A stretch of 63,143 nucleotides of DNA, counting the filler, from Reclinomonas americana ATCC 50394 (lineage: Eukaryota), in assembly GCA_048213135.1 (NCBI GenBank). It is 11 parts of 7 records of this genome, joined end to end, with 100 filler letters (N's around TTAATTAATTAA, not from the genome) between each part and the next. Parts side by side here need not be neighbours in the genome. Positions count along the whole stretch, not along the records: positions 47,978 to 56,498 come from PS015785.1; 10 more parts are not named here. The stretch is one strand, 5' to 3'. Numbering within the stretch: position 1 is the first letter of the stretch; the number at the start of each line of letters is the position of its first letter. Of the stretch, positions 28,001 through 61,537 are shown piece by piece. A model generated the notes under the pieces. That model was not told the DNA's origin. It ran no database searches and worked only from the letters and a program-made list of their open reading frames with translations. Made by a program: the position numbers and the translations under genes.

Positions 28001-31000
28001 NNNNNNNNNNNNNNNNNNNNNNNNNNNNNNNNNNNNNNCCGAGCCGGTGCCAAACACCGTGGTTCCGACATTGGTCACCGACAGACTGCCGTTGAGCGTG
28101 GTGGTGCCAGTGACCGCCAAACCACTCTGCAGTGTCGTCTGGAAACCCGTGACCGTGAAAGCACCGGTAACAGTGGTGGTGCCGGCGATATTCGAGCCAC
28201 CATTGACCGTCAGCAGTCCACCAACGGTGCCGGCACCGGTGACATTGATCGAGCCACCAAACGAAGCGGCGCCAGTGCCCACCGTAAACGTAGACGGACT
28301 GGCGATCGTCGTGTTGCCGGTCACCGACAGCGTGCTCTGCATCGACACAGCGCCGGTGAGGACCGAGGATCCGGTGACCGCCAACGTGGAACCGAGCGAG
28401 GTCGCTCCGCCAGACACCGTAAATGTGTTCGTGCCCGACACCGTCAGCGGGCCGGCGACAGTGCCACCACCAGACGCCGTAAACGTGCCAGTAAGGGTGG
28501 TAGTGCCGGCGACAGACAACGCACCGAGCATCGACGACAAGCCGGTGCCCGAGGTGAATGTGTTGGTGCCCTGCACGGTGACATTGCCGTTGAACTGACT
28601 GGCGCCACCGACGCTCAGTGTGCTGCTCAGCGTGGTGGCACCGCTGACACCCATGGTGCCGCCAAATGTGGCCGCACCGGTGCCCACGGAAAACGTCTGC
28701 ATGTTGCTGATGGCCACTGGATTGTTGAACTGCGTGGGTCCATTCGCCGTCAGTGCCGCGCTCAGTGTAGTGATGCCGCCGACAGTGACGGCACCGGCAA
28801 ATGTGGAAGCACCAGTGCCGACTGCAAACGTGTTGCCGTTCGTGACGGAGACAGCGGCGCTAAAGGTCGACGTCCCGCCCACGCTGAGCGAGCCAGCCAA
28901 GGTTGTCGCTCCGGTGCCAATCACCACAGCGCTGCCATTGGTGACCGTCACGGTCGACGAAAAAGTGGCCGGTGCCGTCACCGACGTCGCACCACTAAAG
29001 GTGGAGGCGCCGGTGACCGACAGATTGCCACCGAGCGACGTGAGGCCGTTCGTCACACTGAATGTGTTGCCGATCGGCAGCGATACGTTGCCGTCCAACA
29101 CCACTGTGCCGCCCGTGGTCGACAGACCACCATTGATGGTGGCCCGACCGGCAACAGTGAGCGTCCCACCCAGCGCGGTGGCTCCCGTACCCACTGTAAA
29201 ATTGGCAGTGCCAGTGACCGCCGTGTTGGCGCCGAAATTGGCGCCGCCGGAGCCCGTCACCAGGCCAGTAAAGGTCGACGTGCCGCCGACCGAGAAGGTG
29301 CCGTTGAGAACGGTGGGGCCAGTGCCGACAGTGACCTGCACGCCGTTGGAGACGTTGATGTTGCCACCAAACTGCGAGGTAGACACCACACTCAGCGTCG
29401 AGTTGAAGGTGGAAGCGCCGGTCACCGCCAGCGTCGATCCGAGGGACGTGGCTCCGCTGGAGACCGTCAGCGATCCCGTGGTTACCGTTAGGTTGCCTGT
29501 CACAGTCGCAGTCGACTGCGCCGTCACCGCACCGGTGAAGGTACTGGCACCGCCGACACTGAGTGTGCCGACCAGCGCCGTCGCGCCCGAGTCCACTGTG
29601 AGGCCAGCCGAGTTGGTCACCAGCACCGCCGCACGGAACGTGGAGGCACCGACCACAGTCAGTGGGCCGCCGAGAGACGTGGCACCGGTTCCAGTCACCG
29701 ACAGCGTCGACGAACCCGTAATGTCCACGTTACCGGAGAAAGTGGCACGCGCGGCAGACAGAGCGCCAGCGAGTGTCGTCGCTCCGGTGACGGCGACAGT
29801 GCCTGCAAAGGTCGAGTTGCCGTTGCCGACCGTAAAGTTGTTGCCATTGGCAATGTTGACAGCGGCGTTGATGTTCACCGGTCCGTTGGCCGACAGCGTT
29901 CCATTGGTGGTGGTGACACCAGACACCGTCAACGAGCCACCAAGCGTAGCCGCACCTCCCGACACGGTAAACGTGTTGGTACCGGAGACGAGCACAGGTC
30001 CCGAGAAAGTGCCGCCGTTTGACGCTGTCAGCACACCAGTGAGGGTTGTCGTGCCGGCCACGCTCAGATTGCCGCCAAGAGAGGTGTTGCCGGCCGCGAC
30101 CGTAAAGTTCGACAGCGGACCAGTGATGTCCACCGTGTTGTTAAAGGTACTCGCACCACCCACACTCAGCGTGGACGCCAGCGTCGAAGCGCCAGTGACG
30201 CTCAGCGTACCACCCAGTGTCGTGGCGCCGCTGCTCACCGACAGAGTACGAGTGGCGGCCAGCGTGACATTGCCATCGAAAAGCGAACTGCTGTTGGCAG
30301 TCAGCGCCCCGTTCAGCGTGGTGACACCGGTGATGTTGACGGCGCCGGCGAAGGAACTCACACCGTTGCCGACAGTCAGCGTCTGGCCGTTGGCCACCGC
30401 CACATTACCATTCAAGTTGGTGGTGCCCGTCACCGTCAGCGTCCCACCCAAAGAGGTGGCGCCGCCGCCGACAGTGAATGTGCTGGTCAGACCGGCCACC
30501 GAGACGGCGGCGTTGAATGTGGCACCACCATTGCCCGTCATCGTGCCGGTGAATGTGCTGGCGCCGGTCACTGCCAGCGTGCCGCCCAGTGTCGTGATGC
30601 CACCAAACACAGTGAAATTGTTGGTGCCCGACACCATGGTGGCGCCATTCAGAGTGGTGGTGCCGGTGACGGCAGTGGCGCCAGTGATGTTGACGGGTCC
30701 GGCCACCGTCAGGCCACCATTGAGCGACGTCAGACCGATACCCACCGTAAGGGTGCTGGCGCCCAATAGCGTGACAGCGCCGGTGATGTTGGCGCCGTTG
30801 GAGAGCGTCGAGAGGCCCGAAAAGGTGCTTGTGCCGCCCACGCTCAGCGATCCAGTCATGGTGGTGGCGCCGGTGCCAATAGACACGTTGCGCATGTCGG
30901 CAACGGAGATGTTGCCGTCGAAAGTAGACACACCCGTCACCGTGACACCGCCACTCAACGTGGTGGTCGACCCGGAGCTCACCGTTAGCGCGCGTCCAGT

Positions 31001-34000
31001 GGCCACCACCACGTTGCCGTCAAAGAGTGCGCCGCCGTTCGACGTCAGTGCGCCCGTCAGCGTGGTCACGCCAGTCACACGCAGCGTACCGCCCAGAGTG
31101 CTGGCGCCAGTACCGACAGTGAATGGGAACGGATCCTGCACCGTCAGCGCGCCGCCAATTGTGGTTCCGCCTGTGATGAGCATGCCGCCCGACAGAGTCG
31201 CCAAACCGGCCACGGTCAACGAACCGCCCAGCGTAGTAGCTCCCGTGCCAACCGTCAAGGTGCTTGTGCCGGACAATGTCGTGTTGCCAGTGATGTTGGT
31301 GGCTCCGGTGACGGACAACGTGCCGGTGAGAGCCGTGGGGCCGGTGACCGCAAGGCCACCGCCAAGAGTCGTGAGACCAGTGGCTACGCTCAGCTGCGAC
31401 GTGCCTGTAATGGCCACGTTGGAGGCCAGCGTGGTAGTGCCAGTGACGGCCAGTGAACCACCCAGTGTGGTGGCACCGGCGGCCACCGACAGCGTGTTGG
31501 TGCCGGTGATGCTCACCGGTCCGGCAAATGTGGCCCCACTGCTGCCCGTCAGCAAGCCAGTAAGTGTGCTGGCTCCAGTCACCGCCAAGGTGCCGCCGAG
31601 CGAGGTAGCCGAGCCGGTGCCCACCGTCAGATTGCGCCCCGTCAGAATGCTCACGTTGCCGTCAAACGACGACGCCGAACCGCCAGTCACCGACAGTGGC
31701 GCGTTCAGTGTGGTGGAGCCGTTCACCGTCAACGTGCCGCCCAACGTACTAGCCGAGGCGCCGACGGTGAACGTGCCGGTCACGGAGACCGTCGACGAAA
31801 ACGTACTGGCACCACCGACCGACAGCGTGCTGGCAAGTGTGGAAGCACCGGTGACCGAGAGCACACCGCCGAGAGTCGTGGCTCCGGTGCCGACGGTGAA
31901 CGGGTTGGCATTGAGCACGGAAAGCGGAGTATCAAAAGTCGACGCAGCTCCCGACACTTGCAAGCCGAGTCCGAGGTTGGTGAGGCCGGNNNNNNNNNNN
32001 NNNNNNNNNNNNNNNNNNNNNNNNNNNNNNNNNNNNNNNNNNNNNNNNNNNNNNNNNNNNNNNNNNNNNNNNNNNNNNNNNNNNNNNNNNNNNNNNNNNN
32101 NNNNNNNNNNNNNNNNNNNNNNNNNNNNNNNNNNNNNNNNNNNNNNNNNNNNNNNNNNNNNNNNNNNNNNNNNNNNNNNNNNNNNNNNNNNNNNNNNNNN
32201 NNNNNNNNNNNNNNNNNNNNNNNNNNNNNNNNNNNNNNNNNNNNNNNNNNNNNNNNNNNNNNNNNNNNNNNNNNNNNNNNNNNNNNNNNNNNNNNNNNNN
32301 NNNNNNNNNNNNNNNNNNNNNNNNNNNNNNNNNNNNNNNNNNNNNNNNNNNNNNNNNNNNNNNNNNNNNNNNNNNNNNNNNNNNNNNNNNNNNNNNNNNN
32401 NNNNNNNNNNNNNNNNNNNNNNNNNNNNNNNNNNNNNNNNNNNNNNNNACACAGTAAGCGTGCCGCCCAGTGTGGTGGCGCCGGTGCCGACCGTGAATGT
32501 GTTGGAGCCAGTGACGGCCGCCGACCCGTTGAGGGAGGTGGCACCGGTCACCACCAGGGTGCCACCGAGAGCAGTGGCAGCATTGGTCACCGTCAGGGGT
32601 GCGCCCATCAGCAGCGTCACGCTCGTGGCAAATGACGCGGCACCCACCGAACTCAGTGCGCCCTGCAGCGTAGTGAGGCCGACCACGCTCAGTGTACCTC
32701 CGAGCGAAGTGGCACCCGACGAGACAGACAGAGTGCGTGTCGGTTGCAGCTGCACGTTGCCATCAATTGTCACCGAGTTGTTCATGGTAGTGGTGCCGGT
32801 GATGGTCGTGTTGCCGGTCACCNNNNNNNNNNNNNNNNNNNNNNNNNNNNNNNNNNNNNNNNNNNNNNNNNNNNNNNNNNNNNNNNNNNNNNNNNNNNNN
32901 NNNNNNNNNNNNNNNNNNNNNNNNNNNNNNNNNNNNNNNNNNNNNNNNNNNNNNNNNNNNNNNNNNNNNNNNNNNNNNNNNNNNNNNNNNNNNNNNNNNN
33001 NNNNNNNNNNNNNNNNNNNNNNNNNNNNNNNNNNNNNNNNNNNNNNNNNNNNNNNNNNNNNNNNNNNNNNNNNNNNNNNNNNNNNNNNNNNNNNNNNNNN
33101 NNNNNNNNNNNNNNNNNNNNNNNNNNNNNNNNNNNNNNNNNNNNNNNNNNNNNNNNNNNNNNNNNNNNNNNNNNNNNNNNNNNNNNNNNNNNNNNNNNNN
33201 NNNNNNNNNNNNNNNNNNNNNNNNNNNNNNNNNNNNNNNNNNNNNNNNNNNNNNNNNNNNNNNNNNNNNNNNNNNNNNNNNNNNNNNNNNNNNNNNNNNN
33301 NNNNNNNNNNNNNNNNNNNNNNNNNNNNNNNNNNNNNNNNNNNNNNNNNNNNNNNNNNNNNNNNNNNNNNNNNNNNNNNNNNNNNNNNNNNNNNNNNNNN
33401 NNNNNNNNNNNNNNNNNNNNNNNNNNNNNNNNNNNNNNNNNNNNNNNNNNNNNNNNNNNNNNNNNNNNNNNNNNGCCAGCGTGCCGCCGAGCGTGGTGGC
33501 ACCCGTGTCAACCGTCAGTGTACCAGAGCCCTGCAAGCGCACATTCTGCAAGAAGGTGGCATCGAGCGCTGTCGACAGCGCACCACCAAGCGTCGTGTTG
33601 CCGCCGACACCTAGCGAACCGCCAAGCGTCGTCGCACCAGTGCCCACGGTGAACGACGAGGTGCCTGTGATGGCGGTGTTGCCGCCAATGGTGGTCGCGC
33701 CTCCAATCGTCGCCGTGGTACCAATGGTGGCGCTGGTGGCCACAGTGAGTGCACCACCCAGCGACACCAGACCGGTACCGGTGGTGACGGTCGACATGCC
33801 CGTAATGCTGACATTGCCCGCAAATGTGGACGCGCCGCCCACCGACAGAGTCGAGGCCAGCGTTGAGGCACCAGTCACTGACAGTGAGCCACCGAGAGTG
33901 GTTGCTCCGCTGGCGACTGAAAAGGTAGAGAGACCCGTAATGGCGGTGTTACCACCGATAGTTGTGGCACCGGCAATGATAGCGGTGCCACCAACAGTAG

Positions 34001-37000
34001 CGTTGTTGGCCACCGCCAAGCTGGCGCCGAGCGACGTATTACCGCCCACCACAGTCAGCGTTCCTGTGCCCGTGATGGAGACGTTCGTCGCAAATGTCGA
34101 CGCGCTACCAATCGACAGCGTGCCGGTGACGGCCGTGTTGCCGTTCACTGTAAGATCGCCACCCAGGGTCGTCGGCGTTCCCGCGCCCACGGAGAAGGTG
34201 CCACCGCCGGAGATAGAGACAGCGCCCTGGAAGGTCGCCGTGCTCACAGCAGTCAGAGCACCATTCAAGCGCGTGGTGCCGTTGGCGGTCAGCGAACCAC
34301 CAATGGTGGTGATGCCGCCGACTACAGTGAAGTTGCTATTGTTAGCCACCGACACTGCACCGTTAAACGTAGATGGCTGCGACACAACCAACGTGCCACT
34401 CAGTGCGGTGCTGCCTGCCACGGCAAGCGAGGATGCCAGTGAGGTTGCACCGCTGACATTGAGCACGTGCGCGTTTGCAATATTGACGTCGCCATCAAAT
34501 GTTGCTGTGTCGGCAAACGACGTCTTGTTGTCAAACTCCGCCAACCCCGTAACCGTGAGTGCACCGCCCAGAGTGGTGGTGCCGAGTCCAACCGTCAGAG
34601 TGGCGGTGCCATCGATCGATACACCGCCATGCAACAGCGACGCGCCGTCCACCTCCAGCGTGCTAGCCATGGTGGCAGCATTGGTGACATTCAACGTGCC
34701 GCCCANNNNNNNNNNNNNNNNNNNNNNNNNNNNNNNNNNNNNNNNNNNNTTAATTAATTAANNNNNNNNNNNNNNNNNNNNNNNNNNNNNNNNNNNNNNN
34801 NNNNNTGCGTTCTGCATGGTCGCCGTGCCCGTCACGGTCAGCGCGCCACCAAAGCTCACCAGACCCGTGTCGGTGGACAGCGTGGCGCCGCTGGTAATCG
34901 CCACAGCGCCGGAGAACGTGGAAGTCGAGGTCGCCGAGAGCGGGCCATTGAAGAGCGCCGTCGTCCCAACTGTCAGCGATGCGCTCAGTTGCGCAGCACC
35001 AGTGACCGCCAGCGCACCCGCCACCGAGACGTTGCCGCCAAGAACCGAAGCGCCACTCACAGTGACACCACCTCCAAGAGTGGAGGCACCAGTGACTGCC
35101 AGTGAGCCGCCAAGGGTCGAGGAACCGCCGGCCACCAGGAAAGCGTTGGTACCCTGCACCGTGACAGCGCCGTTAAGCTGTGAGGCTCCGGCCACACTGA
35201 GGCCGGCACCGAGGGTGGAAGCGCCAGCCACCGCCAGCGTGCCGCCGAGAGTGGTCGGGCCCGTGCCCACCACCAGCGGGAACGCGCCGCCGACAGTCGT
35301 GGCGCCATTGAACACGGCGCCGGCGTTTGCAGTCAACAAGCCAGTGAGAGTGCTAGTGCCCGTCACTGCCAGCGAGCCACCGAGAACCGACGGCCCCGAG
35401 AGCACGGTGAAGTTTTGACCCGTGTCCACTTGCACGCCACCCGAGAAGGTGGCCAGACCCACAACGCTCAGCGTGCCACTCAATGAACTGTTGCCAGTCA
35501 CCGACAGCGTGCCGCCGAGCGTCGTAGGGCTGCCGGTACCGACAGAGAGCGATGTCATTGACGCCAGCGAGACTCCGCCTGCGAAATTCGCCGCGCCAGT
35601 CACCGACAGTGTGGACGACAGAGCAGTTCCACCGGCCACCGACAGTGTGCCGCCAAGGGCAGTGGCACCGGTGCCGACCGTAAAGGTCTGCATGTTGGCC
35701 AGCGACACAGGGCCCTGGAACAGCGAGGCACCAGCGACGGTGACGGTGGCCGAGAACGTCGAGGCACCCGACACGACCAGCGTACCGCCAAGGGTGGTGG
35801 GCAGCGCGCCCACCACCAACGACGCTCCCGACACCTGCACCGTGCCAGAGAGTGTGGCATTGCCGCTGATGGTGGTCGCGCCGGCCAGTGTGGTGGCGCC
35901 GGACACATTGACGGGTCCCGCAAAGGAGGCCAGCGACGTGCCCATGGCGAAGGTCGCTCCGTTTGCAATCGACACATTGCCCGAGAAGCTGGCCGCCCCG
36001 GTGGTCGCCAGGGTTGAGCTCAGCGAAGTGGCGCCGGCGACGACCAGGGTGCCGCCAAGAGTGGTGGCTCCACCGGCCACCGTAAATGTGTTGCCACTCG
36101 ACACCGACACCGAGGCATTCAACGCCACCGGAGCATTGGCCGTCAACGCGCCACTGAATGTGGAGATACCACCCACTGAGAGCGAGCCACCAAGAGTGGT
36201 GGCGCTATTCAGCACCGTCAGCGTGCTTCCAGTACCCAACAAGACACCGCTCGCAAAATTGGCGAGCGCGTTGGCCGTGAGTGCACCCGAGAAGGTGGCC
36301 ACGCCAGTGACGCCGAGTGCTCCGCCCAGCGACACGGCGCCGGTGCCGACGGTCAGTGTGCGTGCGCCGGTAATCGACACATTGTTGTCAAACTGACTGG
36401 TGCCGCTCACTTGCAGCGTGGAGGTGAGTGTGGTAGCACCGGCCACCGCCACAGTACCGCCAAACGATGCACCTCCGCTCACAAGAGTGAGAGTGCGGCC
36501 ACCGGTCAGCGTGACGTTTGCGTCAAACGTCGACACGCCACCGACAGAGAGCGCCGAGGCGAGGGCCGTGGAGCCGGCCACAGTCAGCGTACCACCAAGA
36601 GAGGTAGGACCGTTACCAATGTTGACGGCCACGCCGCTACCGACCGTGACTGGGCCAGTGAGCGTCGTGGCGCCGCCAACGCTCAGCGAGGTGGTAAGCG
36701 TGGTGGCACCGGCCACAGTCAGCGACCCACCAAGTGTCGACGCGCCAGCGCCGACTGTAAATGTGGACGACATACCGACAATCGACAGCGAGTTGTTCAT
36801 CGTGGTGACGCCGTTCAGCGTCACACCGCCATTCAGCGTGGTCACTCCGGTGACCGACAACGAGCCGCCAAGTGTGGTAGCACCGGCGCCGAACAGCGTC
36901 AGCGTTCGTCCAGCCGCAATCGTCAGGTCGCCATTGTGCACAGTGGCTCCCGTCACAGTGAGCGCACTGCCGAGGGTGGTCACATCGGTCACCGACAGCG

Positions 37001-40000
37001 TCCCGCCAAGAGTCGTGGCACCGCCAACCACCTGCAAGGTGGCCACGCCAGCCACCACCACCGCCCCCTGGAAGGTGCTCGTCGAGGTTGCCGTCACTGC
37101 GCCATTCAGCGTGGTGACGCCAGTCACCGACAAGGTGCCACCAAGGACCGAGGCTCCGTTGGTGACGGTGAAGGGACCGGCACCGGCTGCCAGTGTTACC
37201 GGACCGGCAAAGGTGCTCGTGCCCCCGGCACTGAGTGCGCCCACCAGCGACGTCGTGCCAGTGACATTCAAGGTGCCGGTGAGCGTCGTGGCACCGCCGC
37301 CGACCACACTCAGTGTCCCCGGCGCATTGATGGTGACCGTGGATGCAAAGGCAGCAGCACCGGAGACTACAAGCGAACCGCCCAGCGAAGTGGCACCAGT
37401 GCCGACAGTCACTGTGCGGCCATTCGGCACCGACACCGCACCATCCAGTGTCACAGCTCCGCCGCCCACCGAGAGACCGCCAGCGAGCGTAGCAGCGCCC
37501 GTGACGGCCAGCGACCCAGCAAACGACGAAGCACCAGTGCCGACAACAAATGGCTGCATATCGGCAATGGTCACTGAGGCGTTGAAGCGGGCCGCGCCAG
37601 CCGCCGTCATGGCACCCGTCAGTGTCGTCACTCCCGCCACTGTCATGGCACCGCCGTGTGTGACGGCGCCAGTGCCGGTGGAGAATGTCGACGAGCCCAG
37701 AACAGCCACGTTGCCATTGAACGAGGTAGCGCCCGACACTGTGAGCGCACTCAACGTGGTGGCGCCAGTGACGGACAGAGTGCCGCCAAACACCGCGGCA
37801 GTCATGGTATCGAGCGTCAGCGTCTGCATGTTGGTGACGAGGACCGATCCGGTAAATGTCGACGCGCCGTTCGCGGTGAACGCACCGCCGAGCACCGTGG
37901 CACCCGTGTCCACCATCAGCTTCTTGCCATTCGTCACCAGGGTGTCGCCCGAGAAGGTGGAGGCACCGGCCACTGCCAGCGTGCCGCCGAGAATCGAAGC
38001 AATGCCCGTGTCGACCGTCAGCGACGTGCCACCGCTGACACGCGCGCCGCCGCCAAGCGTGGCGAGGCCACCGACGAGCAGCGTTGACGACAGCGAGGCA
38101 GCACCCGTGGCACTGAGAGTGCCACCGAGAGAGGTGGCGCCAGTGCCGACCGTCAGCGCGTTGGTGCCGAGAACTTGCAGAGCGCCACCAGAGACCGTCA
38201 GACCGCCGGCGGTCGACGCTGCACCGGTAAAGGTCGACGCGCCGTTCACCGACAGGGTACCGGTCAGCGAGGTGGCGCCACCACTCACCGTCAGCGCGTT
38301 GTTGTTGGCCACGGTCAGCGTACCATTGAACACGCTGGCGCCAGTGACCGCCACTGCGCCATTGAGGGTGGAGGCTCCAGTCACTGTTACACCGCCACCC
38401 AGAGAGGTGAGGCCAGTGGCGACCGACAGCGTCGAAGACGCACCGGTCACCAGCACACTGTTTGAAAATGTGCTTGCGCCGCTGACAGACAGCGTGCCAG
38501 CCATTGTCGTATTCGACGTNNNNNNNNNNNNNNNNNNNNNNNNNNNNNNNNNNNNNNNNNNNNNNNNNNNNNNNNNNNNNNNNNNNNNNNNNNNNNNNNN
38601 NNNNNNNNNNNNNNNNNNNNNNNNNNNNNNNNNNNNNNNNNNNNNNNNNNNNNNNNNNNNNNNNNNNNNNNNNNNNNNNNNNNNNNNNNNNNNNNNNNNN
38701 NNNNNNNNNNNNNNNNNNNNNNNNNNNNNNNNNNNNNNNNNNNNNNNNNNNNNNNNNNNNNNNNNNNNNNNNNNNNNNNNNNNNNNNNNNNNNNNNNNNN
38801 NNNNNNNNNNNNNNNNNNNNNNNNNNNNNNNNNNNNNNNNNNNNNNNNNNNNNNNNNNNNNNNNNNNNNNNNNNNNNNNNNNNNNNNNNNNNNNNNNNNN
38901 NNNNNNNNNNNNNNNNNNNNNNNNNNNNNNNNNNNNNNNNNNNNNNNNNNNNNNNNNNNNNNNNNNNNNNNNNNNNNNNNNNNNNNNNNNNNNNNNNNNN
39001 NNNNNNNNNNNNNNNNNNNNNNNNNNNNNNNNNNNNNNNNNNNNNNNNNNNNNNNNNNNNNNNNNNNNNNNNNNNNNNNNNNNNNNNNNNNNNNNNNNNN
39101 NNNNNNNNNNNNNNNNNNNNNNNNNNNNNNNNNNNNNNNNNNNNNNNNNNNNNNNNNNNNNNNNNNNNNNNNNNNNNNNNNNNNNNNNNNNNNNNNNNNN
39201 NNNNNNNNNNNNNNNNNNNNNNNNNNNNNNNNNNNNNNNNNNNNGGTGGCAATGTGGCCATCACGGGCACGAACACGCTGACTGTGGGCACGGGCGCCAC
39301 CGTGTTGGGTGGCACGCTCAGTGTCGCAGGCGCAACCGCCGTCTCGGGCACATTTAGTGCCGGCGGTGCAACATCAACATTCGACAGCGCCGTGAGCGTC
39401 GTCAACGGCAAGTCGTTTGCGGTGGTGTCGGGTGCCAGCACGTTGGGCGGCACGCTGAATGTGACCGGCACGGCCACGTTTGCGGGTGCCGTGTCGGTCG
39501 CCGGCGGCCAATTGTTCAGTGTGGGTGCCTCAACACCAAGCACTCTTGGTGGTTCGTTGTCGGTGGCCGGTCTGTCGACATTTGCCGGTGGCCTGCAAGT
39601 CACTGGTGGCACGGTGACCTCGTCGGCCGACCTGACGCTGTCGGGCACGAGCAAGCTGACGACTGGCACCGGTCTCGTCACCTTTGGCGGCGACGTGTTG
39701 CACAGCAACAGCNNNNNNNNNNNNNNNNNNNNNNNNNNNNNNNNNNNNNNNNNNNNTTAATTAATTAANNNNNNNNNNNNNNNNNNNNNNNNNNNNNNNN
39801 NNNNNNNNNNNNAAAAGACGCGCCAGCCTGGCCCGTGATGAGCGCCACGAATGTGGAGGCTCCGGTAACACTGAGAGTGGAACCGAGAGAGGTGGCGCCA
39901 GACACCACTTGCAGTGTGCGCGCTGAATCGATGACTACGTTACCGCTCAGTGTGGTGGAGCCACCAACAGAGAGAGCACCCGTGATGGTGGTGGCACCGC

Positions 40001-43000: not shown

Positions 43001-46000
43001 NNNNNNNNNNNNNNNNNNNNNNNNNNNNNNTTAATTAATTAANNNNNNNNNNNNNNNNNNNNNNNNNNNNNNNNNNNNNNNNNNNNGAAGTCACCACCGC
43101 TGACCGCCGCCTGCAGCACCGTGGTGCCGGAGGTGCGGCGCACGGAAAAGTCCTGAAGAGGAAAACACGAAATGAGGGTCACCAACAACGAAAAAAAGAG
43201 TTGTGCAGCCCCCGGTCGACGACAACTGACCGTGGTGGTGATGCTGTGCGCGCCAGTCAAGGCAGTCGTGAACGACTGACCAAATGCAGTGAGCGTGGTT
43301 CCAGAGGAACCTCCGCCAGCCGCCTGACCCAGCTGCAAGCTGCCGTTGGCGTTGCCGAGCACCAGAGTCAGCGGCGAGTGAGTGTGTGTGGTTCCCAGGA
43401 AGTTGGCGGTGGTGGCGGTGAACGACACGGTGGTGGCCGCCAGCTCCGTGGTGGTACTCGACAACTTGGTGTAGGGACCAGTGAGACTGAGAGAGGGTGC
43501 GAGGGCCGAGCCGGGCACAGTGGCGGTGAGGACCAAGGTGGACGAAAACACCGACACCGCAGAGCCGCCACTGCTGCCAATGGTGATGCTGCCGGTTTGC
43601 GCCGCCGTGGTGCCCAGTTGCATGTCGGAAGCGTTCACTGTGAACCGTGTGGTTGATGCACCGCCCACGAGCACCGTAGGTCCTGAAACGGTCACCTGAC
43701 TGGCGGTGCCTGTGCCCAGATCCACCTGCATGCTACCGGCGGCAAAAATGCCTGTGCCGTCGTTGACTTGCAACCGACCAGTGACGGTGGTCGTCGGCTG
43801 GATCGAAAGCAGCACGCTGGAGCCGCCAGCGCCGGTGGACGTGAATGTGACCTGCTTGGCGTAGCCAGTGATCGAGTCCATCTGCCCACCCGTCGATGGC
43901 TGCATGAGAATGGTTGACGCCGCCTGCAACTGCAAGTCCTGCGTCTTCAAGCGAATCGCCTGCGCCGAGGCCACCGGTGTCTGCAGAAGCAGCAACGAAG
44001 TCGCCGGATTGCCGCCCGTCCCATCGCCACCCACAGTTACCGTACTGCCCATCAGTGCCATGGAACCGCTGATGGAGGACGTGAGGCTGGTGCCGAGAAC
44101 CGTCACCGCCGTCGAAGCCTGGCCGAGCCGCAGAATCGACGACGGCGTGGCCAGCAGTTGCGTTGGTACCAATGTAACCGACGCACCCGACAATGTGGCA
44201 CTCCCCGACGCCGCTGACACCGTCAGCGACAGTGTGCCGGCGGTCAGCGAGAATGAGGTGGCGGTGATCACGTCAAACACCGGCAATTTGAACGTCGACG
44301 ACACCGTGGTGCTCGAGGCCTCCACAGCAAAGTTGCGCGCGTACAAATTGACCAGTGGGGTCGACTGACCGAGCGTGATGGTCGACGTGGTGGTGGTGCC
44401 GAGATTGAGGGTCGACTGCGCATTCAGGCTAATGATACCGCCGGCCGCCGACGCGTCCACAGTGACCTGGACAACAAAAAGTGAGCAGGGGGACATGATT
44501 CTCCACACAAGCAAACAAACACACACCTGTGTGGCCTTTAGCGACATGTTGCGATTGACGCCGGTGGTATTCATGTCAATCATCACCGCCTGCGTCTCGT
44601 CGTACAGCTGAATACGCTGCGGAGTCATGGTGATGGTGGCGGGTGTGGCTGAGTTGCCTTGCAACAAACTGATACTCGAAGTGCCGCTGCCCGACGTGGT
44701 GCTCTGCACCACCACTGCCAGCGCCTTGACAGCCAAGCTCTTCGTCTGCGTGCTGCTGTTGCCGGCAATGGTGACCGAGTTTGTGCCGTACAGGCTCATG
44801 TCGAATGTCGAGGCCACCAACGTGTTGCTGGCGCTGTTGGCGGCCGTGGACAACGACATGGTTGCTGTATTGGCGACCGTGCCAAGAGTCACAGTGGCAG
44901 CGTCGAATGACATGGCGCCCTGTCATATGTGTGAGAGTGTGTGTGTGTGTGCATGTGAGGCGTCGCCAAGGTGAGAGCACGGTGGGGGGGGGGAATGAAA
45001 TCACGAACCGACACGGCACCGGTAAACTGCTGGCCGTTCACGCTGACCACGGTGCCCGGCAGAGTGGCCGTGCCCAGCGTGAGCAACGTGGACGGCTCCA
45101 TGCGCAGCGTGGTCGGTGTAAACGTGTATGCGGCACCCGTGAATGTCGCAGACGGGCTGTGCGCGGTAAAAAAAAAACACAAAACACGATTTGAATACAA
45201 GCAACCAAACAAGAGCGCGGGCGTGAACAACAAGAAAAAAACACGAATGCGCAACGTGCTAAGTGCGTACGACGTGCTGGCCGACGTGGTGATTGTGGTC
45301 GATACCACACTCAGCAACGGCAGCGTCAGTACGTTTGTCGTCGTCGTACTCGAAGCCGTGAGAGCAATGGAGCCTGCCGCCGCCGTCAAGCTGGCCACAC
45401 CAGAGTTGCCGATGGCGATGGTGGAGGTGAGTGTGGACGTCACACCAATCTGGATGGCGCTACCGTCAATCACAACACCCGAGCGTCCATAGTGCCGAAT
45501 CTACAATTGATGCACAACGCGATTCCGTGAGCAGCGCAAAAAGAGTGGCAGGCAACCGGTGCGATGTGGGGGAAAATGACGCACCCGCAGGCACTCGGCG
45601 TACATCGGCGACGACGCGTTGTTATCGAGGCGCAGCTCGCACACCGAGGAGGAGCCGCGGTACAGACGAATGGTACCGGGTGTACCAGACAGTGTCGAGG
45701 CCACCAACTGCAGGCCGGCCTGATCGGTACCGGTGCCTGAGGCCGCCGTCAGTGACACTGAGGACTCGAGATCCAGTGCGCCGGAGAATACATTGACCAG
45801 TGGCGAAGGAGTCGCCAGAGTGCCAAGGTCAAACCGACTCGTGGCGGTGACGCTAACAGCCGCCGACGAGAGCGAAATGGATGTGCTCGACACTGCGCGA
45901 GTACACACAGCAACCATTGAACAAACAAACATCAAATGAACAAAAAACAGAGAGAAGCACACGACGTACGTTGCGAAATGGTCGACGTGACGGTTGGTGC

Positions 46001-47980: not shown

Positions 47981-50900
47981 CTCGGTTCGCGTCCTCACTG
48001 CTCGGCTGGTTTCCGACATATTAGATGGTGCGGTGTGATCATTGCTCCGTTGTGCGTCGTCTTTTGTGTCAACTCATTCTGCTGGCGAAGATGTGCCGAG
48101 TGCTGTGGCTCTCGTGTCGCCGACAGACCTGCTGACTTCGATTGCGAGTTTGCTGCACGACAAAATGTCCTGTCTCACGGCACTCGAGCTGCTGCGACAG
48201 TGTGCAGCAGGTTGCGTTCCGCCTCTCTCTCTTGCAGCATGTATGCCGTCATCATCGACTGCGCTGACACGCGCACACACAGATTTCGCCGAGGATGTGC
48301 GCGATTGTGGTGTGCTGCTGGCGGTGCGCGATCTGTTGCTGATCGATGATGGCGACGGCGAATCCGAAGACATTCGCAAAGGCGCCCTGGTGTGCATGCA
48401 GGACATTCTCACCTATCGTGGCGTACCGCTGCCCGCCTCATACCGTGACTCCACGCCCACCCTACTTACACGTTCGTCACCATCGCAGACTTTACACTGC
48501 AAGACCTGCGGCGCCTACCAGTCGTCTGTTCGATTGCGAGACAGAAAACAAAGAGCGGAGCCGTGATCAAGAAGACCACCCTGCTGCCACTGCGGTCGAT
48601 TGCCATTCCATACGATGCTGCCGACAACCATGTCGGCAGTTGCTCGGTGGTGAATCCCGACGGCGTCTCCAAGGAGGAACGGTTTGTGCGGCTGCGTGCC
48701 AATCTGGCCCGGGTGCCCGGTGCCACCGACACGGTATGTCGAGGTGCTGTGAGATTGTACAACTGTGTGGCTCACTGGCGAGCGACAGCCGCTGACGGAG
48801 TTGGATGTGTGGCATGATTTGGTGGTGGGTGTTTCGTCGAATACTCGCAACTGGTTCCGTGCTGAGCCGTTGTTGGTCTGTTACAGGCAACCATGCGTGC
48901 TGACGAATCCACGTTCTTGGTGGTGGACGGAGATACAAAGGAGCTGGTGCGCTGCCTACCATGATGAGTGTGGTTTTCTGCGTGATTGCTGACTCCTTGC
49001 TTCTGTTGGAAAACAAACCAGGTGGCAACCATCGCCGGTCGTCCGTTCAACATTGAGATGCAGAATGCGCTGCGCGGTCGGCTGCCGTCGATTCGGCGAG
49101 AGGGATTTCGGTGAGCGAACAGCCATCACAGGAGTAGCATTTCCAACGCTCACTGCCTCTTCCATTGTGTCAGCATTGCCGGTGCGAGCACTCCGAGTCT
49201 AGCGGTGCGTGCGTCTGCACACATGTTGACTCTCCTTGTTCAGCCAACTCAGCGGTGAATATTGGCGCAGGATGCTTCGCTCATGTCGCCAGCCATGAGC
49301 ATGGGTGACGGCTCGGTCTCCGATGCTTTCTCGCCGGCCAATCAGCCGACACCGGCCCCAGAGCCAGCGGCACAGAGTCGATCGCCGTTGGCCAGCGATG
49401 TGGTTATTGTTGGGTCCTCGGTTGCTCTGGTGATTGTGCCTGCCTCTCATTTTCACGCTTGGTGTCGCAGGCTGAGCCAACCATCCGGAATCCGGCTCCT
49501 CCTCCTCCTGCTGCTGCTGCCACAGCGGCGCCTGCAGAGGCATCGACCCAGCAACGCAGTGCACCAGTGGTGGTTTCCTCGACTACCACCACCACCACCA
49601 CCACCACCACAACCACAGCCACAGGCAGTGCAGCAGCTGCTGCCTCTGCTCGCTCCAACCGCACGAGTCCCACCAAAACCACTGCCACAAATCAGCGACG
49701 TGTATCGTTTGCGGCGAGTGAAGAGGGACAGCAGCAGGTACATGCCGCTATCTCTGTCGACGTCTGGCTCATTACATTTCACGCATTAACACCACCTTAA
49801 CGTTCTGCCAGGTGCAAGCGGCTCGTGCTGCCATTCCACCAATTCAGACAGTGGCGACGACGACAAGAAGCGACATATCGAAACCGCCACCGCCGCTCGG
49901 CCGACCGCCGACCACGCAAAGCAATCGCTTCAGTGGACAGCAGCTGTACAAGTTTGTGGCCGCCGAGACGCCGGCCGATCCCTCTGGGATTGAGTTTCTT
50001 GTAAGTGCCTCCTTCGCCTGTGGCGGTAGCAGCAGTTTTGATTCTCACTCTAGAATCATCGCAGGATGATGCAGACATGCACGGCGAGCAGGTGACCATG
50101 GAGATTCGGCTGATTCTCATCGGCGACGCGCGAGGTGTGTACTGATGAATGGAAGGGTTGGAGTGTGCGTTTCCAGTGCGTGTGTATGAACAGAGTCTGT
50201 GTATGTTCAGTGGGTAAGTCGACGTTTCTACGGAAGTTTGGTACACGACGCACCCGGAATGGAGAGGATTATGGTGTGCTGCCTCGTGTGCTCTCTCTGT
50301 GCTGTGCTATATATGCATCATTCTCACTCACTGTCGTAGTGAGCGCATATGCCCGTGACGAGCAAGGCCGGTTGTTGCTGGTGAAAGTTGCGAAGTGCGG
50401 TCTCCGGCGAACATCAGGTACATCATGCTCACCTTCCTTGTTGTTTCGACAGGTACTCGAGTGCTTGCGTTGCGTGACAGTATGCGACACATCTTGTTTG
50501 GTTTGCGTCCACTGCACTCACACAGCGCTCCCTTGTATGCAGCCGACACTGCGGCACCAGACAACATGTTCAAGATGCTCAACGTGTTCAGACGCGCTCA
50601 CGGCCTCGTGTTCATGTTCGATGTCACGCGAGCGCACACGTTTGAAGTTGCGCACCACGCACGCCTCACCTTGCCCTTTTTCTGAGTTGACATCCAACCT
50701 TGCCTGGTTCCAGGTGATCTCGAATCTATATCGACAGGCCATGGACATTGGTCGGCAGCGGAACCGCTATCAGTTTGTGTGTCGCACAGTGTTGGCCAAC
50801 AAGGTATGCTGTGTGTGCACGACTTGTGTGCGTGTTTCTCGTCGTTCAAGTGCGCCGCAGGTGGACAGTCCGGAAACTGAGAAACGCGTCACTTTCCGGC

Positions 50901-51171
50901 AGGCGCTGACATTGGAGGGATCGTGTGGTATTCAAATGTGCGTCGTCTACGTGCGGTGTTATGTATCTGTCGTCTTGAGCTGGCCCGACAGTGCGTTGCA
51001 GAACGGAGCTGTCGGCTGAGAATTCTCCTGCTGCGCTGCTGCGCACCGCACTCGGGCACACGGTCGAGGAGGTGGTGCAGAGGCGTGATGAGAGCTGCTT
51101 TGACGACGTTCTGTCGGCCAATGTGGAGTCTGAGTGGGCCATGTGGAAGCGGAGCACTGTGGAATTGGGTG
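47981..51171 (+). CDS. Multi-exon protein ending in an atypical Ras-superfamily GTPase domain (both ends in gaps)
   Basis: Spliced G1 LILIGDAR|VGKST, G3-like DTAAP, AHGLVFMFDVT, G4 VLANK|VD and G5-like TELSA. Upstream exons are helical/ARM-like then Pro/Thr-rich; their linkage to the GTPase is not fully traced. Confidence 0.7.
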
Positions 51172-51888
51172 NNNNNNNNNNNNNNNNNNNNNNNNNNNNN
51201 NNNNNNNNNNNNNNNNNNNNNNNNNNNNNNNNNNNNNNNNNNNNNNNNNNNNNNNNNNNNNNNNNNNNNNNNNNNNNNNNNNNNNNNNNNNNNNNNNNNN
51301 NNNNNNNNNNNNNNNNNNNNNNNNNNNNNNNNNNNNNNNNNNNNNNNNNNNNNNNNNNNNNNNNNNNNNNNNNNNNNNNNNNNNNNNNNNNNNNNNNNNN
51401 NNNNNNNNNNNNNNNNNNNNNNNNNNNNNNNNNNNNNNNNNNNNNNNNNNNNNNNNNNNNNNNNNNNNNNNNNNNNNNNNNNNNNNNNNNNNNNNNNNNN
51501 NNNNNNNNNNNNNNNNNNNNNNNNNNNNNNNNNNNNNNNNNNNNNNNNNNNNNNNNNNNNNNNNNNNNNNNNNNNNNNNNNNNNNNNNNNNNNNNNNNNN
51601 NNNNNNNNNNNNNNNNNNNNNNNNNNNNNNNNNNNNNNNNNNNNNNNNNNNNNNNNNNNNNNNNNNNNNNNNNNNNNNNNNNNNNNNNNNNNNNNNNNNN
51701 NNNNNNNNNNNNNNNNNNNNNNNNNNNNNNNNNNNNNNNNNNNNNNNNNNNNNNNNNNNNNNNNNNNNNNNNNNNNNNNNNNNNNNNNNNNNNNNNNNNN
51801 NNNNNNNNNNNNNNNNNNNNNNNNNNNNNNNNNNNNNNNNNNNNNNNNNNNNNNNNNNNNNNNNNNNNNNNNNNNNNNNNNNNNNNNN

Positions 51889-54652
51889 AGCAGCGCAGAG
51901 TAGAGTTCTGTGCAGGTGCCGAGGACAGTGAGTGGGTGTGGATGCAGTGTGAGAAGAGAGGAGTGCTCACCAGTAAGAGGAACAGGGAGAGCTGCATGAT
52001 TTGTTGCACGACATCTCACCTCCTGCAGCACAGTGTCAGCACGAGAAGCATGCATGAACGAGAGCATGGCGTCAACCATCGACGAACCCACTGTGCGTGA
52101 TTAACAACATTCGAGGATTCGTGAAGAGAGAGAAGATCAACTGGTGAGCGGTGGGTGATATGACACTGCGGTAGTAAATGTCACACTGACCTCCTACGAA
52201 CCGCAAGAAGCATGTGAGTCACACGCATATGCAGATGGAAACGGGAACAGCACACATCAACTCACTTCCTGTTTTCCGTAATCCGCAGGCACGAGCAAAA
52301 AGCAAGTCGGTAAAAGTGAGTTAACGCACACAGAAGCCACTGAATACTTAGGGCATAACACACGCACATCCTGCAACAAACAAATCAGAGTGAGACACAA
52401 CAGACAGCAAACTACAACTACCCACAACATGTGCGACTCACATCCTGCAGGGAAGAGGGGGAGCAAGAGTGAGTAAATTCTTCATACGAGCAACATCCGA
52501 CAAGAGAGACGTGATTACGCACAAACTGGAGGTAGAATAGTTGTCGAAGCGCGAGCAATGAAACACAAGTGAGCAAACACAGTCGACAGCAAATCAACAT
52601 GAATGAATGAGCATAAAAGCCGCAACGTCCTGCGCAGATCAGATAGGGTTAGTGACATGCTTCAAAGAAGTACAAGGCTGACAGATAGCAGTGAATCAAC
52701 GCACCAGCTGCAGAACAGGATGATAACGCGGGGAGAGAGAAGAGAACACAGGTCAGTTGCTGAAAGGCAATTGAAAGCAAATGTCACAAACTGCGGCTCA
52801 CCAACTGCACATCAAAAGACAAGTGAATAATGAGTGAGCAAAGTGATAAGTAGGAAGCATAGTGCGGCAAGGATGCTCACTCACATACTGATTTGTAGCC
52901 GGTCGAGAACAGGAGCAAGGCACAGTGAGTGAACTGCAAACAAAAAGGTGGCAATTGCGCGGCAACACGGGCACTCACATACTGTGGGTGATAAGTGAGA
53001 CATGGTTAGTTCTCTCTGCTATAGATGTATGAAACAAGGCGAAACACACACAGCTCACCTCCTGTTCCACCAAGTTCGCACGGACACGATGGGCACACGC
53101 AAATGAGCAACACAAGAAAAGCAGCAGGACGCATCAGCAGCAAGATCACAAAAGCACAAACCCCCTGCGATGCATGGACGACTGGGTCAGCAACCAGAAT
53201 AAGACAGCTCAAACAACTGCCGCACACTCACCGGATGGAACCGGCACTCGCTGCACTCGGGCGACGAGACGCACATGTTGCACTTGTTGCACTTCCACAA
53301 CTGTTCGTATCGTCGCCTGTGAGAACGCGCAGGAGACGATCTCCCTCATGTGCAACACACAGACCTTGCTCTTGACAGACTGGACGCGTTCAATGGCCAA
53401 TCCAAACTCGTCGAAGGTTGTCTCCATGACCATCTGGTTATCATGGTTCGGTTGTGCAGCCAGCGGTCGTCGTCTCCTGCGCTGGCCAGTGAGCTGCTCC
53501 TCGAGAGCTGCCACCTTTCCGCACAGTTCCTCTTTTTCTTGCTGATGATTCTCGACCATCTGCACTGCACATGTCAGTCTTTGCATGCAACTGGCTCTTG
53601 TGGGATGAAGGCAGGAGATGGAGAGGCAGACCTTGCGCCGCTCCGCCTCGGTCTCCGACAACTGTCTTCGCAGGTTGGCCACCTGTGTGCAGATGGCATC
53701 GTGATTAGCATACTGCTGACGGACGTGTATCATGCGTGGATAAGCTGACCTGCTGCTGCAGCAAGCGCACTGTCGGGCCTAGCGCGGCATATTCGCACTT
53801 GTGTTTGGCCATGTCGCATGCTCGGCCGGTCCATTCGCATCCCACATCGCTCATGGCGCAGCAAACTTGACGCAGCGAGCACTCAAGCACTGGCGATAAG
53901 CAGAGTCAGTGGGTCGTCGGCATGCAATTGTTGGCCAACACTTACACACGCACCATGATGCCTGTCCATGTCCCTGTACGCAATGTGGTCGGCTCCACAG
54001 CGATCGCACACGTAGTTGCACTCAAGTCGGTGCGTCTCCATGTACTCGCGCACTGTACCTGTCCATCGGCACGGTGCCGCACCGGTCAACACATCGTTTC
54101 GCCGCGGGCATCGCACCTCCAGATTGTAAAACTGGCGCAAGTTCACCGACGGTGGCGTCACCGCATTCAGCAGTGTGGTGCCTCCGCAGCCGCAAAAGTT
54201 CAACGGACTGTGCGGAGTCAAGTGGCCTGCCAAAGTACCAAGTTTAGCGGCAGTCACACACGCACACACACGCAGCCAAGAGGCAATATTCGACGGCACA
54301 CACAACTCTGGCAGGCGTAGTGCTCGCCGCGCAAGCACAGCAGGAAGGGAGCCTCGGCCAGGTCCTGGCACACACCGCAGCGGTAGAGCGACGACGAGGC
54401 CTCGTGCAGCAGGTCGTCTTCCGTCAGCGGAGGCGGAGGAGCACCGATGACAGTGCTGAGCGTGCCGGTGGATGCTGGTGGTGCTGAAGAAGAAGACGAC
54501 GACGACGAGGAGGAGGAGGAGGAAGAAGAAGATGTGGAGGTAGTTGACGCCACTGATGGCCTCTTTTGTGGGTGGACGTGGTGGTGGTGTGCGTGAGGCG
54601 ACGCGTGCCGGTGGTGGCACACTGACGCGTTCGAAAGTACTCCGGTCAACAT
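51889..54652 (-). CDS. RING finger + TRAF-type zinc fingers + coiled coil + Cys/His module containing a microexon array (3' end in gap)
   Basis: CGVCQDL...CLRGEHYACQSC...CGC (RING-like), LEVRCP...CRWTG...HRLEC and CAMSDVGCEWTG...HKC (TRAF-type), a coiled coil, exon 53232-53316 WKCNKCNMC...ECRFHP, then 14 three-base exons and NSTLRC. Confidence 0.8.
52020..53164 (-). other. Array of 14 consecutive 3-nt single-codon microexons
   Basis: In transcript order: 53162-64 GGG, 53059-61 GAG, 52979-81 TAT, 52885-87 TAT, 52802-04 TTG, 52705-07 CTG, 52627-29 GAC, 52523-25 TTT, 52442-44 GAT, 52368-70 GAT, 52266-68 GAA, 52191-93 GAG, 52088-90 TGG, 52020-22 GAG. Each follows CAG (13) or TAG (1) and precedes a donor of the types used elsewhere in the window. 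Confidence 0.88.
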
Positions 54653-54842
54653 ACTGCGCGACAAAATGCAATACACACGGGTCAGCGCAGCAGCAGAGCG
54701 AGGTGCCGAAGGAATGCCTCTGACGCAACGCGCACACGCGATCGGGCAAGAGTGAAAAAACGACAGAATGCGATCTCTCGCCGATTGGGGCAATGATGAG
54801 CAACGGTCGACAGGACGTACATCGATTGTCCCGACATCGCAA

Positions 54843-59996: not shown

Positions 59997-61135
59997 CTAT
60001 GCATCTAAAAACTTGGCGTAGATACAGAACGGATCGCCGTTGGCGTCGGTGACTAGAATGCACTCGACGCGAACACTGCGAGGGCGTCGGGTGAGCGGAG
60101 AGTTGGTGCGACGGCGAAACCAAAGGACTTTCTCAACGCAACGGATGACGACGTGTTTGTTGATTGCACAACAAATCGGCTGTAACAGTGCAGTGCTTGC
60201 TGGCGCCCGACAGCACCATCGCCAGATATTCCTGCGCACCCAACTGATCAGCACGAAAGTCAGCACGCACAGAGATGCGAAGATCACGAACCCTCCACGG
60301 ATGTGGCATGGTCCCGTTGTCTACCAAGTACGACTCTAGTGGCTGTCGGACCAGCGACTGCCGTGGGACGCCGAGAAGCACGGCCAACGCCTGGTTGGCG
60401 AGGAGGAGTGTCATGTCGCGCGACACAAAGGCCGCGCCGACCGACAGTTGTTGAAAGGAGATGAAGTGAAAGTTGGGCTGCGCGGCAGCACGCAGGTGAG
60501 ACACACACATGCGAGGACTGCAGAGAGTGAAGGATGAGCTGTGGCGCACCTGGCCCTTGGAGGCCGGCTGACCGACCGCCGATGGTACCCGAGAGGCCTG
60601 CCGGATATCGCAAATCACGGCCACAATAAAGAGTGCCTCGCCGGTCTCGTCGCGAGCCTGCACACCGCAACGAAATGAGAATGAAGGATGGATGACGCGC
60701 TCCAAATCTCTTCCGTCTGTGACTTACCGCCGTCATGCGAATGTTGAGTGGTACTGGGTGTCCGTCGCGATGGCGGCCGACAGCATTCAGGTTGAACGCC
60801 TGCAGCTCCCCAATCAACAGCTTGTTGATGAGCTCCTGCAGCGACTGCTTGTTGGTCTCCATTTGCAGAATGGAGCGCGCGCTAAACTCCTCCTTGGGCG
60901 ACCCAAAGACGGCACACAGGGCCTCGTTGACGCGCAGAAACTCGCCCTCCCGCGAGATGATACACATCGGCACCTGCGCCTTTTCAAACGCATTCTCGAA
61001 CCACTCGAGCGGAATGTCCGAGGCGCTCACTGGTGGGCAGCATGCGTGAGGGATGGTGGAGAGGGAAAGGGAAGGAGGGAAAGTCGACGCACAAGGGTAC
61101 GATGATGATGCTGAGCCTGAAGGTCCAGCGCCGAC
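59997..61135 (-). CDS. Tandem PAS-domain protein (5' exons unresolved)
   Basis: WFENAFEKAQVPMCIISREGEFLRVNEALCAVFG...GRHRDGHPVPLNI...RDETGEALFIVAVICDI (PAS/PAC) and a second PAS, GAAFVSRDMTLLLANQAL...VTDANGDPFCIYAKFLDA*. Confidence 0.8.
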
Positions 61136-61537
61136 CTGCACAGGAAGAGGAGAAACACAAGGGGCAATGAGAAGGAAGAGAAGGGCAGTGCCGCTTGTGA
61201 CGCGCTTCTTTCACATGCACATGGATGCCATGCGAGAGAAGAAGGAGAATCGATAAGAAGCGAGGAGTCCCCCTGCCTCGGGCGTGCTATCGATCACCTC
61301 TTCTCACGGGGAGAGAACGAGACAAGATCAACGATCGACGAGATGAGTAGTGCCGCGTCTGACACGCTCTCTCTCCAGGAGCAAAGGCATCGTTTGCACA
61401 AGCAAGAGAGAGAGAGCGAGCAGCAAGATCTTCGATCACAACGAAGTGAGCAATCCCGCCAGCGATGCGCCTCTCTCTCTCCATGAGCAAGGGCATCGGT
61501 TGCGCTGCTGTTCACCTCTTCTCGTGCGTACGAGGAC

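Follow-up and report, generated by a model that had tools for sequence, protein, structure and literature searches.

Within a zinc-finger-like gene on the minus strand of a 63,143-nucleotide (nt) stretch of DNA from the protist Reclinomonas americana ATCC 50394 (assembly GCA_048213135.1; the whole of this stretch is called the window below), a cassette at 51908..53231 has the layout of 15 short introns (65–112 nt) alternating with 14 exons of three bases each. We put at roughly 0.6 the probability that these 1.3 kb are a real chain of short spliceosomal introns, each defined across itself, whose removal would leave 14 codons in the messenger RNA (mRNA); when variable inclusion of the codons is counted along with constitutive inclusion, the microexons are probably real. 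The host gene starts at an ATG at 54652 in exon 1, and five further exons lie between exon 1 and the chain, the last of them being exon 6 (53232..53316).

A predicted chain of single-codon exons

A scan of the minus strand from 51880 to 53330 for the motif YAGNNNGT finds 14 sites of the form YAG-NNN-GT between 53164 and 52020, spaced 68–104 nt apart. The acceptor is CAG at 13 of the 14 microexons and TAG at the other (52193), and the donors are GTGAG (seven), GTGCG (three) and GTCAG, GTTCG, GTTTG and GTTGCG (one each). The introns that precede microexons 1 to 14 measure 67, 100, 77, 91, 80, 94, 75, 101, 78, 71, 99, 72, 100 and 65 nt, and the sequence CACTAAC occurs in one of them at 52654-52648. 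A preliminary description of this DNA had listed these sites, donors and intron lengths, together with the CACTAAC motif, an upstream exon ending in CATCCG at 53232 and a next exon starting at 51907; every site is where it had been placed on the minus strand, the donor list and the 14 lengths agree exactly on re-reading, and the other elements are all present. Two additional matches to the motif fall within the scanned range, at 53250 (inside exon 6) and at 52790 (14 nt past a true site). All 14 units fit the definition of a microexon (no more than 30 nt, with AG upstream and GT downstream), and their sites are of the canonical U2 type.

Such a chain is far outside what base composition alone produces. 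The motif YAGNNNGT occurs 15 times in the 1324 nt of the cassette, and 14 of these sites form a chain when spacings of 45–130 nt are allowed, while 2000 mononucleotide shuffles of the same 1324 nt gave a mean of 2.4 sites (maximum 8) and no chain longer than 5. We therefore reject a chance origin of the chain. Elsewhere in the window no YAGNNNGT chain on either strand exceeds 3.

The introns of the chain carry a consistent set of signals. All 15 begin with a GT donor, and a branch-like CT[ACG]AC lies 8–62 nt from the 3′ end of 14 of them (shuffles: mean 2.1, maximum 9, n = 2000); the fifteenth has CTCAT at the equivalent place. Where the preliminary description had seen branch-like motifs in some introns, the slightly broader motif CT[ACG]A[CT] is found in every one of the 14 introns that precede a microexon, with its A 45–58 nt from the donor in short and long introns alike (65–101 nt). 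In each of these 14 the acceptor used in the model is the first AG more than 5 nt beyond the branch-like A. Between branch +6 and the acceptor there is not one AG in 333 positions, where 8.2 would be expected, and zero was never seen in 5000 shuffles; from donor to branch, the same introns contain 26 AGs in 711 positions. Because the AG-free zone played no part in the selection of the sites, it is an independent test of them. The approximately 20 nt before the acceptors average 66% pyrimidine, and the introns that flank the microexons look complete, with donor, branch, pyrimidine-rich AG-free stretch and acceptor. The sense strand of the cassette is also intron-like in composition, at 35% T and 49% GC versus 19% T and 60% GC for exons 1–6. 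The variation in length among the chain introns falls entirely between branch and acceptor, and the lengths alternate roughly between long and short, neighboring pairs totaling about 175–185 nt.

The lengths had been called normal for this genome, and they do match those of 13 other introns in the window (57–125 nt), which we modeled by frame continuity in the host gene (five), a MetAP2 gene (two) and a small-GTPase-like gene (six). Donors of these comparison introns include GTGCGT, GTAAGT, GTCTGT and GTTGCG, and CTCAC or CTGAC often precedes their acceptors; by our own reading the rare donor GTTGCG of microexon 7 recurs at the modeled intron 50647-50713 of the GTPase-like gene. By these measures the chain introns appear ordinary in size for the window, and their predicted signals are, if anything, nearer to consensus than average.

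Reading frame and coding potential

Coding potential was scored with a codon usage model built from 594 codons of the window (GC content at third codon positions 0.75). Exon 6 scores +11.2 bits in one frame, the same as that of the preliminary description, versus −4.1 and −11.2 bits in the other two, and the 14 microexons together with the next exon score +5.2 bits in that same frame, versus −19.3 (with stops) and −8.7 bits. The same frame is thus favored on both sides of the chain and across it, as a coding chain predicts. No frame of exon 6 contains a stop; in the favored one, a 9-nt tandem repeat of 2.7 copies (53271-53294) generates its C-x2-C-x2-C pattern. Searches of exon 6 against Pfam and PDB returned nothing significant, and the His-Pro-Gly that it would form with the first microexon corresponds to no family that we could find. 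Of the 14 microexon codons, eight begin with G and eight end with it. This is also the preference of the splice-site consensus, so the encoded residues may have been shaped by splicing as much as by protein function. A gene lying beneath the chain on the plus strand was considered and rejected, as open reading frames (ORFs) within the chain encode at most 76 amino acids on either strand.

From the observed signals and their statistics we infer that the sites are used, in what order the introns would leave, and what protein would result. Each short intron would be recognized across itself (intron definition), which the fixed donor-to-branch distance of 45–58 nt fits. With acceptor and next donor only 3 nt apart, neighboring introns are probably not engaged simultaneously and would be removed in turn, and the three nucleotides would stay behind after each removal because the junction regenerates no new donor. 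The mRNA would thereby gain 14 codons, mostly for acidic and aromatic residues, between the Cys-rich exon 6 and the C-terminal part of the protein, and the default product would include all fourteen.

Several points weigh against this reading. The codon usage test is small: it had 20 codons to score for the chain and 28 in exon 6. The preliminary description had noted that the chain reads through without a stop; codon usage does favor its frame, but the openness itself proves little, as the chain is free of stops in two of its three frames. Furthermore, the favored frame requires an alternative donor for exon 5, CA/GTCTGT at 53380, and no proper branch motif is present in the 64-nt intron so formed; the obvious donor (53364), or no intron at all, leads to a stop at the ninth microexon. 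The exon 5/exon 6 junction is by this analysis the weakest of the gene model, and a homopolymer sequencing error is a live alternative to the use of donor 53380; microexon 1 itself lies among five consecutive G's, where such errors readily occur. The 3′ end of the gene falls in an assembly gap (N's at 51172-51888). No homolog was found over the part of the protein encoded by the chain, the one relative described below aligning to exons 2 and 3 only, and the window holds only this single chain. Finally, a simple intron model that looked for adjacent introns no more than 15 nt apart found 39 pairs on the minus strand, 37 of them in the chain, and one on the plus strand, versus 0.65 per strand in shuffles, but its branch and donor criteria were taken in part from the chain itself and the scan is partly circular.

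Origin of the chain and alternative explanations

Tandem Repeats Finder, run on the locus, detects no tandem repeat in the chain, only the 9-nt repeat inside exon 6; a repeat finder applied within the chain returns splice-site words and no larger shared sequence; and no matching inverted repeats were found at the ends of the 15 introns. In local alignments of intron interiors, adjacent pairs have a mean z of 0.18, and the highest z among 190 pairs, 4.6, belongs to two unrelated introns. With pairwise intron alignments at background level, a tandem repeat or minisatellite was rejected. We read the combination of fully diverged interiors and 14 intact sets of signals as selection on the splicing of each unit, and it argues against a recent duplication or mobile-element burst as the explanation of the present pattern; on how the chain first arose, the conservation of signals is silent. 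Neighboring codons do repeat (TAT/TAT, TTG/CTG, GAT/GAT, GAA/GAG), and 13 nt are identical between the two TAT sites and 13 of 14 between the two GAT sites, but the shared nucleotides are the splice consensus itself. The repetition of codons hints at local duplication or at insertion with a 3-bp target duplication, for which no supporting similarity is left.

If the cassette were only a by-product of such an origin, either a diverged tandem duplication of intron plus codon or a burst of inserting intron-like mobile elements with 3-bp target duplications, it would have no present role in splicing. The repeated codons, the 13–14 nt shared at the TAT and GAT sites and the long/short alternation of intron lengths are what this idea has in its favor. 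However, no similarity remains between interiors of either adjacent or alternate introns, and had the cassette arisen long ago and then gone without selection, neither its signals nor its AG-free zones would have survived, so that we consider this explanation very improbable; duplication or insertion may well account for the origin of the chain, but not for its maintenance. Decay of unused signals is also a difficulty for a less improbable, though still unlikely, alternative, in which the whole cassette is spliced out as a single long intron, or is untranslated or non-coding, the three-base units are never translated, and the signals are relics or way-stations. The uncertain frame into exon 6, with the simplest model stopping at the ninth microexon, is consistent with this alternative, as is a peptide that carries no known motif and has no homolog with these residues. 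Codon usage, on the other hand, favors coding in one consistent frame, and use of the sites as way-stations would still leave 3 nt in the RNA each time. A last possibility is a non-coding host transcript that releases one small RNA, for example a small nucleolar RNA (snoRNA), per intron and has meaningless tiny exons. Host genes of snoRNAs and other small RNAs do have short, poorly conserved exons and one RNA per intron. Against this, 51908-53231 has no Rfam match at E ≤ 1 (the single match over 51889-54700 is sub-threshold and lies in exon 1), introns of 65–101 nt have no room for such an RNA beside their splice signals, their interiors share no motifs, and the chain is contiguous and in frame with a protein-coding gene; we regard this possibility as scarcely tenable.

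The preliminary description had raised instead the possibility that the exons serve diversification. On that reading the exons are real, but donors would pair with acceptors at least one unit downstream, inclusion would be combinatorial, and the product would be a family of proteins differing by single codons within an acidic/aromatic linker. Its statement that any subset of the exons can be skipped in frame follows arithmetically from their length of 3 nt. A skip would create an intron of about 140–200 nt, the modeled introns of the window reaching 125 nt, and with only 3 nt between an acceptor and the following donor, competition between neighbors is plausible. There is also a precedent for short exons in this role, since schistosome micro-exon genes (MEGs) use them and alternatively spliced isoforms of MEG 2.1 have been described (PMC10526429, PMC10399815). 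However, 14 complete and strong sets of signals with a fixed branch distance fit efficient constitutive removal better, the host protein appears to be an intracellular type of zinc finger and not a secreted or surface antigen, and the repeated residues would render many variants identical. Given the uniformly strong signals, diversification is not our default reading and strikes us as quite unlikely. Alternatively, the microexons might serve as stepping stones by which a spliceosome restricted to short introns crosses a 1.3-kb spacer.

Comparison with known tiny exons

If spliced as predicted, the chain would be more extreme than any series of tiny exons that we found described: a search of the full-text literature, which leaves subscription journals largely uncovered, turned up isolated cases only and no series of exons of 3 nt or one codon. 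Two other known kinds of element resemble it in part. In animals, ratchet points of recursive splicing have an abutting AG and GT, leave nothing in the mRNA and divide introns of tens of kilobases. They too present an acceptor and then a donor and allow a long sequence to be removed stepwise, but here 3 nt separate AG from GT at all 14 sites and each step is shorter than 102 nt. Introner-like elements are introns gained in large numbers within one lineage, their families being recognized by the similarity of the copies. A target-site duplication of the kind that they might make could, as an idea only, explain the repeated neighboring codons; the 15 chain introns, however, share no similarity and have no terminal inverted repeats.

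Isolated ultra-short microexons are better documented. The 1-nt exons of plant APC11 and VPS55 were proven by reverse-transcription polymerase chain reaction and RNA sequencing after annotation had missed them, and one rice transcript has adjacent exons of 5 and 12 nt (PMC8831610). Exons of 3 bp have been reported in Drosophila homothorax and in human RPS24 and MAP4K5 (PMC7392893, PMC12686416, PMC8632122). Like the exons predicted here, these ultra-short exons are 1–3 nt long with canonical flanking sites, and they are spliced into mRNA; they occur singly or with at most two as neighbors, whereas the predicted chain has 14 in a row, separated by introns of 65–101 nt, in a protist. The closest architecture is that of the schistosome MEGs, whose 10–20 very short exons, in most cases a multiple of three in length, were missed by automatic annotation (PMC10526429). 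The exons of MEGs are larger, as the preliminary description had said, most being 15 bp, while the minimum is given as 6 bp in the text and 3 bp in the abstract of the same paper; MEG introns measure 100–5000 bp, and the products are secreted proteins of the parasite (PMC10526429). The 14 exons of the chain fall within the MEG range of about 10–20 multiple-of-three exons, but its introns, at 65–112 nt, are not the long introns of MEGs, all of its exons are 3 nt, it makes up only part of a zinc-finger gene, and it is unrelated to MEGs in sequence. A published nuclear genome of a jakobid is intron-poor (PMC7050145) and must therefore belong to a different organism.

Structure of the host gene and cassette

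All host gene features lie on the minus strand. Exon 1 (54304..54652) runs in an open frame from the ATG to a GTGTGT donor, and encodes a His/Ser-rich start followed by a RING-like C-x2-C ... C-x4-H-x2-C-x2-C. Exon 2 (53954..54226), joined by frame continuity, is TRAF-type zinc-finger-like, and exon 3 (53750..53889) encodes a second TRAF/Sina-type zinc-finger-like stretch. A coiled-coil-like stretch begins in exon 4 (53632..53682), which is also placed by frame continuity and has a GTCTGC donor; the intron after it contains a branch-like CTGAC. Exon 5 (53381..53559) is ended here at the alternative donor that the favored frame needs, while the other candidate donor, 53364, keeps frame B. The assignment of exon 6, which is Cys-rich and ends in CAT CCG, draws on codon usage.

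Scanned exon by exon against Pfam, exon 1 matches Sina_RING (E 0.095), exon 2 TRAF2_zf (E 0.026) and exon 3 zf-TRAF (E 0.033), all below the curated cut-offs; the gene appears from these matches to be RING/TRAF-zinc-finger-like and of an intracellular type. A word-based protein search with exon 2 found no homolog, and a full HMMER search with it against 1.8 billion representatives gave five matches at E ≤ 0.001. Four of these five were inspected, and by reading, one (P0122, from a single 1120-nt contig; E 4.8e-06) is the sole believable relative. It was the only one aligned pairwise, and it also matches exon 3, with 40% identity over 48 residues (E 2e-08). The alignment of P0122 to these two exons supports both of them and their junction. 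No transcript-derived protein of this gene came up in the protein libraries searched with exon 2. A metagenome locus search with exon 2 gave one weak and unrelated-looking match (L001).

The microexons follow in order, with the branch-like motif of the upstream intron given as nt from donor/nt to acceptor; the acceptor is CAG except where stated. Microexon 1 is GGG (Gly; 53162..53164), with donor GTTTGT and CTGAC at 45/22 in its upstream intron (53165-53231). It is followed by microexon 2, GAG (Glu; 53059..53061), with donor GTGAGC and only a branch-like CTCAT, at 58/42. The two Tyr codons, TAT at 52979..52981 (microexon 3) and at 52885..52887 (microexon 4), both have the donor GTGAGT, with CTAAC at 53/24 and CTCAC at 53/38, respectively. 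Two Leu codons come next: microexon 5 is TTG (52802..52804; donor GTGAGC; CTCAC at 50/30) and microexon 6 CTG (52705..52707; donor GTGCGT; CTGAC at 49/45). Microexon 7, GAC (Asp; 52627..52629), has the rare donor GTTGCG and CTAAC at 56/19, and microexon 8, TTT (Phe; 52523..52525), has GTGCGT and CTCAC at 57/44. The Asp codons of microexons 9 and 10, both GAT, lie at 52442..52444 (donor GTGAGT; CTCAC at 53/25) and 52368..52370 (donor GTGCGT; CTCAC at 51/20). Microexon 11 is GAA (Glu; 52266..52268; donor GTGAGT; CTCAC at 51/48), and microexon 12 is GAG (Glu; 52191..52193), the one with a TAG acceptor (donor GTCAGT; CTCAC at 51/21). The last two are TGG (Trp; 52088..52090; donor GTTCGT; CTCAC at 46/54) and GAG (Glu; 52020..52022; donor GTGAGA; CTGAC at 52/13). 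The last chain intron (51908-52019, 112 nt) has CTCAC at both 70/42 and 91/21, and of the next exon only the first 19 nt (51889..51907), open in the favored frame, precede the assembly gap that cuts it.

Other genes in the window

The small-GTPase-like gene (50100-51171, plus strand) has G1 and NKxD motifs by eye and is convergent with the zinc-finger gene; its six modeled introns measure 57–125 nt, one having the rare donor GTTGCG, and its 3′ end is also in the gap 51172-51888. One of its exons, of 34 residues, gave no match to Pfam. The MetAP2 gene (5650-6826, plus strand) has introns of 70 and 95 nt, and the best match of its last exon, at 81% identity, is a protein of the jakobid Seculamonas ecuadoriensis; among the 120 matches listed the next is 75% identical and most are about 70%. 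Protein searches with proteins of the window found none identical to the window's own, and we therefore take the genome to be unannotated. On the minus strand, the ORF at 4144-4788 resembles eukaryotic porin (VDAC; Pfam E 3.7e-05, 23.7 bits versus a cut-off of 28.4); a word-based search found no relative of it, so it must be very divergent. An ankyrin-repeat ORF (15-983) and a PAS-domain ORF (60287-61210), also on the minus strand, are ordinary neighbors. Between 19794 and 42741, long ORFs that lack introns and reach about 1800 codons occupy both strands (e.g., 27983-33514 and 34758-39260, minus strand); they encode Thr/Gly/Ser/Leu-rich repeats in several near-identical tandem copies and are interrupted by gaps of N. 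Neither a sample of 500 residues from these ORFs nor the 627-residue ORF of a neighboring region (43042-44922) matches Pfam. N's make up 6722 of the 63,143 bases of the window and include, besides larger gaps, ten blocks of 44 N, 12 bases and 44 N (8151-8250, 13753-13852, 19750-19849 and seven more). At a guess, these blocks may be linkers or adaptors masked in an older assembly made by pyrosequencing, and it is from this guess that the homopolymer alternative given above for the exon 5/exon 6 junction follows.

Implications

If it is spliced as predicted, the chain would be a limit case for the spliceosome, with acceptor and donor 3 nt apart fourteen times in succession and no room for exon definition or for simultaneous occupancy of both sites. 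It would then offer a natural substrate for studying the order of steps in intron-defined splicing, the marking of junctions that are 3 nt apart, and the origin of such structures. About 1.3 kb of the gene would give 14 residues that no annotation based on ORFs or alignments recovers, a concrete example of what escapes gene finders and read aligners. Moreover, if inclusion of the microexons were variable, the cassette would be a new route to protein variants, a splicing-based generator of diversity at the finest possible grain.

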